Below are positions 56,230 through 59,814 of a stretch of DNA of 64,000 nt, in pieces. This DNA is from Escherichia phage APECc02, in the sequence record NC_041869.1; one strand, written 5' to 3'. Position numbers and translations under genes: made by a program. The notes under the pieces were generated by a model, which saw only the letters and a program-made list of their open reading frames with translations, was not told the origin of the DNA and searched no databases. Each line of letters opens with the position of its first letter. Position 1 is the stretch's first letter.

Positions 56230-56463
56230 TTAATCTTCGTAAATCAAGATTTCTGCTTTAGGTTTTCGTGCTTTCAGGTCCAGCTCTATCCAGTGCACCA
56301 TAGCTGTTTCAAGAAAAACAGCTTGGATGCATCCGTCCTCAGCGTGCCCTACCAACATAACAAGATCTTCACCTTCGTCATCTGCATCACGAACATAAAG
56401 AATCTCTCCAGATTCAAAGTCTTTCACAACCTGATTGTTGGATAATTTACGAATTTTTGCCAT
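56230..56463 (-). CDS. small paralog family member D (77 aa)
   Basis: Shares G-E-(I/V)-h...D...V core with upstream paralogs. Confidence 0.5.
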   Translation of the reverse strand: MAKIRKLSNNQVVKDFESGEILYVRDADDEGEDLVMLVGHAEDGCIQAVFLETAMVHWIELDLKARKPKAEILIYED

Positions 56464-56464
56464 A

Positions 56465-56728
56465 TCAGAAACCCTCTAAAAAGCTCTTGTAGAAAACAAT
56501 CTCAGTATCCACACCAGTCACGATCTTGTCGTTCCTGATTTCATCGGTAAGATAGGTGTCAAAACGCAGAACCTGTGTGGTGTTGTCACACATCCACTCT
56601 GCTGTGACCATGGCGAAAATCTTAGCATCTTCATTATCTGGTGTGAATGTTACCACCTCACCGCATTTAAACTTTTCGATAGGTTGAGTGTTAGCTTTCG
56701 GTTCTGCGATAGTGATTTTTGTGGTCAT
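56465..56728 (-). CDS. small paralog family member C (87 aa)
   Basis: KCGEVVTFTPDNEDAKIFAMV aligns with PCGTVVSCDGDGIQNIVMIV of member B. Confidence 0.55.
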   Translation of the reverse strand: MTTKITIAEPKANTQPIEKFKCGEVVTFTPDNEDAKIFAMVTAEWMCDNTTQVLRFDTYLTDEIRNDKIVTGVDTEIVFYKSFLEGF

Positions 56729-56991
56729 TATTCTCCTCCTTCTTTTGAATAGCTTGTCTCTCCAAGGATGGTAATTTTGGTGTCAAGCTCTGTAACTTTC
56801 ATGTTTGGTGGCAGATCGTACAACTCATTATTTTCTAAATCAAACCCCCACACACAATGTTCTCCTGTTTTGACAATCATAACTATGTTTTGAATGCCGT
56901 CTCCGTCACAACTTACCACGGTCCCACACGGGAAGCTGTCTGCACGCTTTTTGTTCTTCACCTTAGAATTGAATACAATGCTAGTAGCCAT
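56728..56991 (-). CDS. small paralog family member B (87 aa)
   Basis: About 40 percent identical to member A by eye (MAT..F.S..K.KK, GTVV, VK, FDL, LP..VTE.D..I.ILGE). Confidence 0.55.
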   Translation of the reverse strand: MATSIVFNSKVKNKKRADSFPCGTVVSCDGDGIQNIVMIVKTGEHCVWGFDLENNELYDLPPNMKVTELDTKITILGETSYSKEGGE

Positions 56992-57254
56992 TATTGTTCC
57001 TCCACCATAACTTCGCCAAGAATTTCTATGCAGGCATCCATTTCTGTAACAACCAAACTGTGAGGTAGTTCTACAAACACCTTTCTGAACAAGTCAAATA
57101 CCCCAACATATATGTTTGCAGGATGTGATTTTACAACAAGTGCTGTATTCACATCCCCAAGCTCATCAACAAACATCACCACAGTGCCTGGAGCTACGGA
57201 AGACAGATACTTCTTAGTTTTACGGTTTGATGCAAATTTTAACTCTGTTGCCAT
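56991..57254 (-). CDS. small paralog family member A (87 aa)
   Basis: Identical length to B and C; TAATG stop/start overlaps. Confidence 0.55.
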   Translation of the reverse strand: MATELKFASNRKTKKYLSSVAPGTVVMFVDELGDVNTALVVKSHPANIYVGVFDLFRKVFVELPHSLVVTEMDACIEILGEVMVEEQ

Positions 57255-58763: not shown

Positions 58764-59804
58764 TTATTTAACGTGTTTGAAAATACCTGCCAACTCGGTC
58801 ATTGTCATGCGGGTGGTCTTCATAAGATCTGTCATAGCTTTCTCCATAATTGGAGATACTACCATAAAGTTTCCTTTAGTGAAACCTTTATTCCAGTCGG
58901 TCACCAGTAGTGGTTTAAGTCCAGCTCCGAGACGTTCACCAGTTAAAGCACAGCATTTGCGAATATACGAACTCTTAAACTGGCTGAACGACAGATCAAC
59001 TTTCATACCTGCATCGTAGAACGTTTGACAATAGAAAGTGTAAGCCTTAGCAACCTCAACATCATCAGGCAGTGCAGGAACCTCTTCTGCAATCTCCTCT
59101 TCGACCTTCTGAGGCTCTTTTTCCTTTTCAGAGTTCTGTTCTTCAATTTCTTCTGTCACAGTTTCGTTTACGATGTCTGAAATGTGTTTGTTGGCTGCAC
59201 GATCAGCCATGAAATTTTTAAAGTCCTGCATTGGTGACATATCTTCTTCCTCTTCGTCAAAAAGTGCTAGTTTATCTTCTTCTGTCCCGTATTGCAAGAT
59301 GAAATCTTCAAAAGTATAATCACCTTTCAACTTCTCCATACGCTCTTCGCTCAGGTGGAGCATCATCTGCTGGACAATTTTTCGATCAGTTTTGTCTTTA
59401 ATCAGGATTGCAGTCTTTTTATCTACCAGACAGTCCTTCAGAGAGTTGCACCTCAATCCTACCACACAACAATTATCAATTGCGTAAGGACCTTCATCAT
59501 CTATCCGCTCCAGAGATGGATAGAAAGGATTTCCCAGCCCGTTTTCATCTGTGTGCATGTCGAAAGGTATAAGAGTGTAGTCGCATACCCCTTCTCCTAA
59601 AAGTTTTTTACCAAATAGGAGGTATTCTTCCCACGACAGGTCGAACTCTATATCTCGTTTCCGTGCATTATTCTGTTTGCGTCTATATTTTTTGAGCAGG
59701 CGCTCTAACTCTTCTGGTGTATAATATTTTTCAAGATTCATGAGTTGTTTCTCGTGCTCTGTAAGTGAAGAAATCGTATCAACTGTCCCAACAGATGTCA
59801 ACAT
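58764..59804 (-). CDS. hypothetical protein with acidic linker
   Basis: ATG at 59804 (track uses TTG at 59807); first gene of leftward operon. Confidence 0.45.
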   Translation of the reverse strand: MLTSVGTVDTISSLTEHEKQLMNLEKYYTPEELERLLKKYRRKQNNARKRDIEFDLSWEEYLLFGKKLLGEGVCDYTLIPFDMHTDENGLGNPFYPSLERIDDEGPYAIDNCCVVGLRCNSLKDCLVDKKTAILIKDKTDRKIVQQMMLHLSEERMEKLKGDYTFEDFILQYGTEEDKLALFDEEEEDMSPMQDFKNFMADRAANKHISDIVNETVTEEIEEQNSEKEKEPQKVEEEIAEEVPALPDDVEVAKAYTFYCQTFYDAGMKVDLSFSQFKSSYIRKCCALTGERLGAGLKPLLVTDWNKGFTKGNFMVVSPIMEKAMTDLMKTTRMTMTELAGIFKHVK

Positions 59805-59814
59805 CAAAAACGTG

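Follow-up and report, generated by a model that had tools for sequence, protein, structure and literature searches.

Organization of the array and its operon

The DNA analysed here is a stretch of 64,000 nucleotides (the window) from Escherichia phage APECc02 (NC_041869.1), in which four small genes, A to D, follow one another on the minus strand (Table 1). A preliminary description of this DNA had given their lengths and coordinates, which agree exactly with the list of open reading frames. Inspection of the sequence also bears out its account of the first three genes: A, B and C span 264 nt apiece and are joined by TAATG overlaps at 56991 and 56728. The C/D junction reads TGAtATG, and start-to-start distances along the array are 263, 263 and 265 nt. 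Every junction carries a GGAGGA-type Shine-Dalgarno sequence, encoded within the acidic C-terminus of the gene before. The region is 100% identical to that of Escherichia phage rV5_ev147 and 97-98% identical to that of many Vequintavirus genomes; the array of rV5 has three genes, ORF14-16. All four genes are hypothetical in the annotation of every record.

The array begins directly downstream of a metallopeptidase-vWA gene, as first proposed, and Pfam recognizes both DUF2201_N and DUF2201 in the upstream product. Its assignment to an early leftward operon gains support from a conserved, near-consensus sigma70 promoter, P11, with the timing read from the promoter sequence. P11 is annotated in the rV5 record, and its sequence is kept between rV5 and the window. 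A scan of the minus strand from P11 to at least 54600 returns no terminator-like sites. In the rV5 paper, genes 11-26 are described as one transcription unit, and the paralogs are not mentioned (PMC3606486). The array genes would thus share a host sigma70 promoter with the Srd-like and DUF2201 genes, which suggests that they are early genes.

Table 1. Genes and other features in and around the array, in window coordinates.
Feature	Positions	Strand	Remarks
Promoter P11, sigma70-type	59773-59801	minus	TTGACA-N17-TACGAT, extended -10 TG; 10/12 positions in scan
Srd-like 'anti-sigma / sigma70 decoy' homolog (rV5 gp11)	58764-59741	minus	first gene of the operon; phrog_4592, phrog_1400, record annotations, PMC3606486
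DUF2201_N metallopeptidase + DUF2201 VWA-like protein, 493 aa	57270-58751	minus	upstream gene; Pfam E 3.5e-28 and 3.6e-11
Gene A, 87 aa	56991-57254	minus	family clade A; opens the variable slot
Gene B, 87 aa	56728-56991	minus	clade B; second gene of the slot; ATG overlaps TAA of A
Replaceable cassette A+B	56731-57245	minus	from just past the A start codon to the C start codon
Gene C, 87 aa	56465-56728	minus	distant paralog; core gene, nearly invariant; phrog_12861
Gene D, 77 aa	56230-56463	minus	probable most divergent member; core, nearly invariant; phrog_12046
rV5 gp17 homolog, 149 aa	55764-56213	minus	neighbour downstream of the array
rV5 gp18 homolog, 81 aa	55522-55767		same operon as the array
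rV5 gp19 homolog, 188 aa	54953-55519		same operon as the array

Relationships among the four proteins

The preliminary description called the products recognizably homologous by eye, which holds for A and B but not for C and D. A and B are 37-39% identical (E 1e-11), their local alignment scores 103 against 23.7 ± 4.2 in 1000 shuffles (z=19), and both match phrog_10698 in the PHROG search. The motifs listed for the whole set (MAT, K.KK, GTVV, FDL, ILGE) are essentially those of this pair. Compared pairwise with A, neither C nor D reaches significance (z 1.4 and 0.6), and comparisons of either with B, or of C with D, are marginal (z 4.0-4.7). Profiles recover C: an A/B profile built from four distinct A/B-type variants aligns with the C profile in hhalign over the full length and in register (85.6%, E 5.6e-6). 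The corresponding values for D are 3% and E 0.015.

A rank test, in which each subfamily's HMM was run against 689 six-frame segments of the window, adds to this picture. The A/B HMM has C as its best non-self match (E 5.6e-4), the A/B/C HMM has D as its best non-member match (E 0.004), the C HMM finds B and then D, and the D HMM places C first; each subfamily HMM puts other array members at or near the top of its non-self matches. Additionally, the AlphaFold2 models of A and D show an identical strand order with a constant -4 offset, and this four-residue shift agrees with a gap in the sequence alignment. Foldseek targets common to the two models are weak. Judged by sequence, A and B are clear paralogs beyond doubt, and the assignment of C as their distant paralog is supported. 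D is probably the most divergent member of the family, on weak statistics together with the modelled strand order. The PHROG database treats the corresponding groups 10698, 12861 and 12046 as three unrelated ones, matched by A/B, C and D at E 1e-41 to 1e-62, whereas the profile, rank and structure evidence joins them as one family.

The same HMMs find no further family copies among the 689 segments of the window. The downstream ORF18 (81 aa) was considered as a fifth member and is unsupported (hhalign 0.2%, HMM E 3.9). BLAST in a tiny database aligns C weakly with the VWA part of the metallopeptidase (E 0.05), which is taken as chance.

Limits of the family

The preliminary description did not recognize the family, and neither do Pfam, NCBIfam or PDB sequence searches. 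Together with PADLOC, these give nothing significant for the array proteins; the PDB search has no match below E 0.26, and Rfam places no RNA family in the array region. Searched exhaustively with the A/B/C profile in HMMER, 1.84 billion representative proteins yield six matches, five of which are members of this phage group or fragments of them. The 867-aa repeat protein P0031 was considered as a distant homolog; its similarity consists of a weak 30-residue piece repeated four times and is judged spurious. With A-D as tblastn queries and an E limit of 1, matches among 50,697 phage records occur in 116 Vequintavirus records only. Within the protein and phage records scanned, the family is thus confined to Vequintavirus and a few metagenomic relatives. 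Sixteen of the records that match the array region at high identity are named 'Campylobacter phage' (MG0656xx, host C. jejuni), and these host labels are probably wrong.

The metallopeptidase is found far more widely, in 669 phage records, most of which do not carry the small-gene family. In Seunavirus (GAP31) and in Klebsiella-phage relatives, the gp17 homolog comes directly after the metallopeptidase, which points to the A-D array as a Vequintavirus-specific insertion. In two of these relatives, a gene for an 86-aa protein immediately precedes the metallopeptidase (L004, 3168-3428; L005, 3197-3457), and the two copies are 51% identical.

Predicted fold and charge

Each protein is predicted to be a single domain of 77-87 aa that folds into a five-stranded, SH3/Tudor/LSm-like small beta-barrel. 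The AlphaFold2 models of A (pLDDT 80, pTM 0.67) and D (pLDDT 73, pTM 0.60) rest on shallow alignments of 8 sequences. That of A shows a strongly bent, five-stranded antiparallel barrel of the SH3/Tudor type that superposes on known members, and D would probably share this fold. In both models, a long basic N-terminal strand precedes the barrel. Charge follows one pattern in all members: the N-terminal 20 residues carry +1 to +4 and the barrel -4 to -12, with a pI of 4.4-5.7, a combination that favours protein binding over general nucleic-acid binding. Small beta-barrels of this type are generic and occur in proteins that bind RNA, DNA, peptides or other proteins. The fold therefore does not fix the ligand of the array proteins.

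A variable slot at the head of the array

Among the 116 Vequintavirus genomes, the first position of the array is occupied by A+B in 42. The other 74, rV5 (ORF14) and FFH2 among them, have a single gene there, E, which encodes 85 aa and belongs to a third clade. E is about 40% identical to A and about 40% identical to B. Between the window and rV5, identity drops exactly between the A start codon and the C start codon. On either side, 24-30 of 30 bases match per 30-nt window, mostly at least 28, and the lowest values fall in the 3' half of C. Compared with FFH2, the flanking genes are 94-98% identical in nucleotide sequence, and the slot is unalignable. An origin of E (rV5 ORF14) as an A/B fusion by unequal crossover was considered and rejected: the clade-informative sites are interleaved and show no breakpoint, which makes E a third clade.

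The slot varies through whole-cassette replacement and copy number, not through point diversification. The description of the genes as diversifying is therefore correct in one respect, that the A/B position varies, and does not extend to C and D, which are nearly invariant in the 116 genomes. Mechanistically, whole cassettes, either A+B or E, would be swapped at this first position by recombination.

Age of the duplications and selection

The genes had also been described as locally duplicated and diversifying, which comparison with the divergent relative on contig L007 does not bear out. Its flanking proteins are 55-82% identical to those of the window, and it nevertheless carries orthologous A' (58%) and B' (64-70%), so the A/B duplication is ancient. 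Synonymous sites between the paralogs are saturated. Moreover, dN/dS is about 0.01-0.06 for C and D. Between the window and L007, C retains 97.7% protein identity (dN 0.015, dS 0.50, dN/dS 0.029) and D 96.1% (dN 0.017, dS 0.51, dN/dS 0.032), against dN values of 0.13-0.38 for neighbouring genes. A and B, with dN 0.27-0.31, evolve no faster than these neighbours. Compared with rV5, C is 98.9% identical at the protein level (dN 0.005, dS 0.55, dN/dS 0.009), and D ranges from 0.03 to 0.06 in dN/dS across comparisons. Values for all four minus-strand frames lie between 0.009 and 0.17, which indicates strong purifying selection.

Across the Vequintavirus genomes, C is at least 95% identical in 115 of 116, D is present in 116 of 116, and the two together keep at least 90-95% identity throughout. 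Purifying selection on these two core genes is extreme, and C and D are far more conserved than their surroundings. Part of this near-invariance could come from recent recombination, since their dS is 0.5 and the flanks are saturated. Against rV5, C differs by one amino acid at a dS of 0.55, compared with dS values of about 0.08-0.10 for D, gp17 and gp19. The 3' half of C (56465-56599) forms a second small recombinant patch relative to rV5.

The distant lineage represented by contig L011 extends this pattern. Its metallopeptidase is 47% and its Srd-like protein 37.5% identical to those of the window, and its lone C-type gene is still 81% identical. That gene lies upstream of the Srd-like gene, three genes from the metallopeptidase. 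On L009, from the same distant lineage, an E-type gene (P0030) lies in an unrelated context. Family members travel as independent cassettes, given these lone C-type and E-type genes elsewhere. A 237-nt segment of L009 (2070-2307) matches Krischvirus (RB49-like T-even) phages at about 84% identity, which suggests mosaic exchange between unrelated coliphage groups. Just upstream of the lone C-type gene, L011 (2580-3486) carries two adjacent 142-aa genes, one of which also adjoins the E-type gene of L009. The pair has no BLAST similarity at E up to 0.1, so the equal length is no sign of paralogy.

Truncated 58-aa forms of D and E occur on metagenome contigs and were considered as pseudogenes. They arise from single-base indels, one of them in a poly-A run, with intact frames downstream, and are therefore probably assembly errors.

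Comparison with known systems

By analogy, the closest described counterpart is the GoF/MotB.1/Frd.2 family of phage T4, early proteins with N-terminal halves that form SH3/LSm-like barrels despite dissimilar sequences (Kim et al. 2025, PMC12152347). Both sets comprise small proteins of large E. coli myophages, early in T4 and probably early here. Each is restricted to one phage group, with paralogs too divergent for BLAST to link, and both share a predicted five-stranded SH3/LSm-like barrel, a fold matched by description. In the T4 proteins, the barrel takes up roughly the first 82-91 residues and is followed by an additional C-terminal domain, whereas the array proteins consist of one domain. 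In addition, the array genes are tandem and translationally coupled, an arrangement that the consulted sections of the T4 paper do not describe. Laboratory tests showed the T4 genes to be dispensable (PMC12152347), whereas C and D are core and nearly invariant. No sequence link to GoF, MotB.1 or Frd.2 is recognized among the six matches from 1.84 billion proteins or in the tblastn search of 50,697 records. Given this lack of a sequence link, one domain instead of two and the tandem coupling, the array is not a member of the T4 family.

Similar barrels are also found among Tudor, SH3 and KOW domains, including the C-terminal Tudor domains of UvrD and PcrA, SMN Tudor, EF-P domain I and the SH3-like domain of uL2. 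These share 7-20% identity with the array proteins, which differ in their additional long N-terminal strand and have no Pfam match, the KOW and CarD_TRCF_RID models included. In BFVD, the model of A matches dozens of uncharacterized phage proteins of 70-90 aa (TM 0.5-0.65, Foldseek probability 1.0), among them N4 Gp21 and ORFs of N4-like, phiEco32-like and T4-like phages; matches of the D model are weak. These phage barrels equal A in size and predicted fold, but at 9-22% identity they give no evidence of common descent. We know of no tandem four-gene array for such ORFs.

Possible roles of the array proteins

The array genes are real and functional, and we infer a binding role and early timing for them. 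Acidic SH3/Tudor-like barrels, an early operon and a Srd-like first gene best support the reading that the products are small protein-binding modules for host takeover. As a whole package, including family, fold and operon and with its mechanism inferred, this reading is offered tentatively, at somewhat under even likelihood. The genes are translationally coupled and would be expressed early from the host sigma70 promoter. Each of C and D would bind a partner that does not vary, be it part of the core host machinery or a conserved protein of the phage itself; for the exchangeable A/B/E slot, the partner would be one that varies from host to host. The whole surface of C and D appears constrained, which fits tight binding to an invariant partner. 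A sharper version, in which C and D are near-invariant Tudor/SH3-like effectors, each clamped onto a conserved machine of the E. coli cell in early infection, and A/B/E are interchangeable specificity modules, is rather improbable in that exact form. Such a machine could be RNA polymerase, the ribosome or the RNase E degradosome, with the Srd-like protein alongside; the paralogs may also assemble with one another. A search of the literature returned no functional data for any array member.

Alternatively, the A/B/E slot, and possibly C and D, might inhibit host immunity, with alternative cassettes conferring different spectra. Such an anti-defence role, raised in the preliminary description, would suit the replacement and copy-number variation of cassettes inside 94-98% identical flanks, the early sigma70 operon, the small acidic proteins and the accessory status of the array within the subfamily, as it is absent from Seunavirus and Klebsiella-phage relatives. 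It appears unlikely all the same. C and D are core and nearly invariant, unlike arms-race genes, the slot holds three clades only, and the rate of change in A and B does not exceed that of adjacent genes. Searches through PDB, Pfam, NCBIfam and PADLOC give no sequence match to characterized anti-defence proteins, many of which are among the solved structures. According to the BASEL study, Vequintavirinae are exceptionally sensitive to restriction-modification and are often hit by abortive-infection systems. As a basis for comparing haplotypes, sensitivity to restriction-modification is confounded by site counts. In the accessible portion of the BASEL raw data, three phages are all Fun/Z-sensitive and Old/Tin-resistant; they include the A+B phage MaxTheCat and the E phage JeffSchatz, and the haplotypes do not differ for Fun/Z, Old or Tin. 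To the extent of that portion, the BASEL data give anti-defence no support, and nothing favours it over generic host takeover.

An RNA-directed role, in which LSm/Hfq-like proteins tune mRNA stability or translation at the start of infection as proposed for T4 GoF/MotB.1/Frd.2, is less probable again. The predicted five-stranded SH3/LSm-like barrel and the basic N-terminal arm would permit it, and the operon is shared with a Srd-like protein. T4 Srd reportedly stimulates RNase E. Sm/LSm/Hfq proteins are marked by an N-terminal alpha-helix, Sm1/Sm2 motifs and a ring oligomer. The models of A and D have no N-terminal helix, Pfam gives no significant match for A-D, LSM included, and the proteins are acidic overall (pI 4.4-5.7). 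The T4 precedent itself cuts both ways, as wild-type GoF has no RNA effect (PMC12152347). Slightly further down the scale, the proteins might work with the neighbouring DUF2201 metallopeptidase/VWA protein, whether as its substrates, as regulators or as accessory subunits. The array lies directly downstream of that gene in the window, rV5, LL12, FFH2, L007 and L013, its members are translationally coupled to each other, and even the distant C-type gene remains within a Srd-like/DUF2201 operon. However, the metallopeptidase occurs in 669 phage records and the small genes in 116, the gp17 homolog takes the array's place directly after it in Seunavirus and Klebsiella-phage relatives, the C-type gene of L011 lies at a distance of three genes, ahead of the Srd-like gene, and the E-type gene of L009 has an unrelated context. 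That the frames are chance ORFs or functionless, decaying duplicates is effectively refuted by the selection analysis and has a negligible probability. Such a view could draw on the lack of functional annotation in any record and on the truncated forms in some metagenome contigs, but all four genes have dN/dS values far below 1, they are conserved across 116 genomes, and the truncations are most likely assembly errors.

Implications

Phages of the genus Vequintavirus turn up among the most frequent isolates on E. coli and serve in cocktails for biocontrol and therapy. To our knowledge, their early operons are essentially unannotated. This analysis newly joins three "unknown" PHROGs as one predicted beta-barrel family and sets a nearly invariant core, C and D, apart from an exchangeable A+B/E slot with precise boundaries. 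The strongest candidates for conserved effectors of host takeover are C and D, and the A+B/E polymorphism offers a natural allele swap for tests of host range or defence. After T4 GoF/MotB.1/Frd.2, the array would provide a second example of cryptic SH3/LSm-like early protein families in large coliphages. On the sharper version of the host-takeover reading, these genes would represent a new family of phage host-takeover proteins.

Annotation of neighbouring genes

The program-called start of the Srd-like ORF, a TTG at 59807, overlaps promoter P11 (59801-59773). The true start is most likely the ATG at 59741, which gives a 978-nt gene as annotated in phage LL12. Two PHROG labels in this region look like propagated mis-annotations: 'HNH endonuclease' (phrog_1314) on the DUF2201 metallopeptidase/VWA gene and 'tail protein' (phrog_6790) on the gp17 homolog. 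Several GenBank records carry these wrong names. In the rV5 record DQ832317 (L003, 1257-2718), the metallopeptidase is split into ORF12 and ORF13 where other genomes show a single ORF of 493 aa. The split in this 2006 record is therefore probably a frameshift or sequencing error. Further downstream, the gp18 and gp19 homologs are 100% identical to rV5 at the protein level with about 2% nucleotide divergence, and are thus strongly constrained genes of the same operon as the array.
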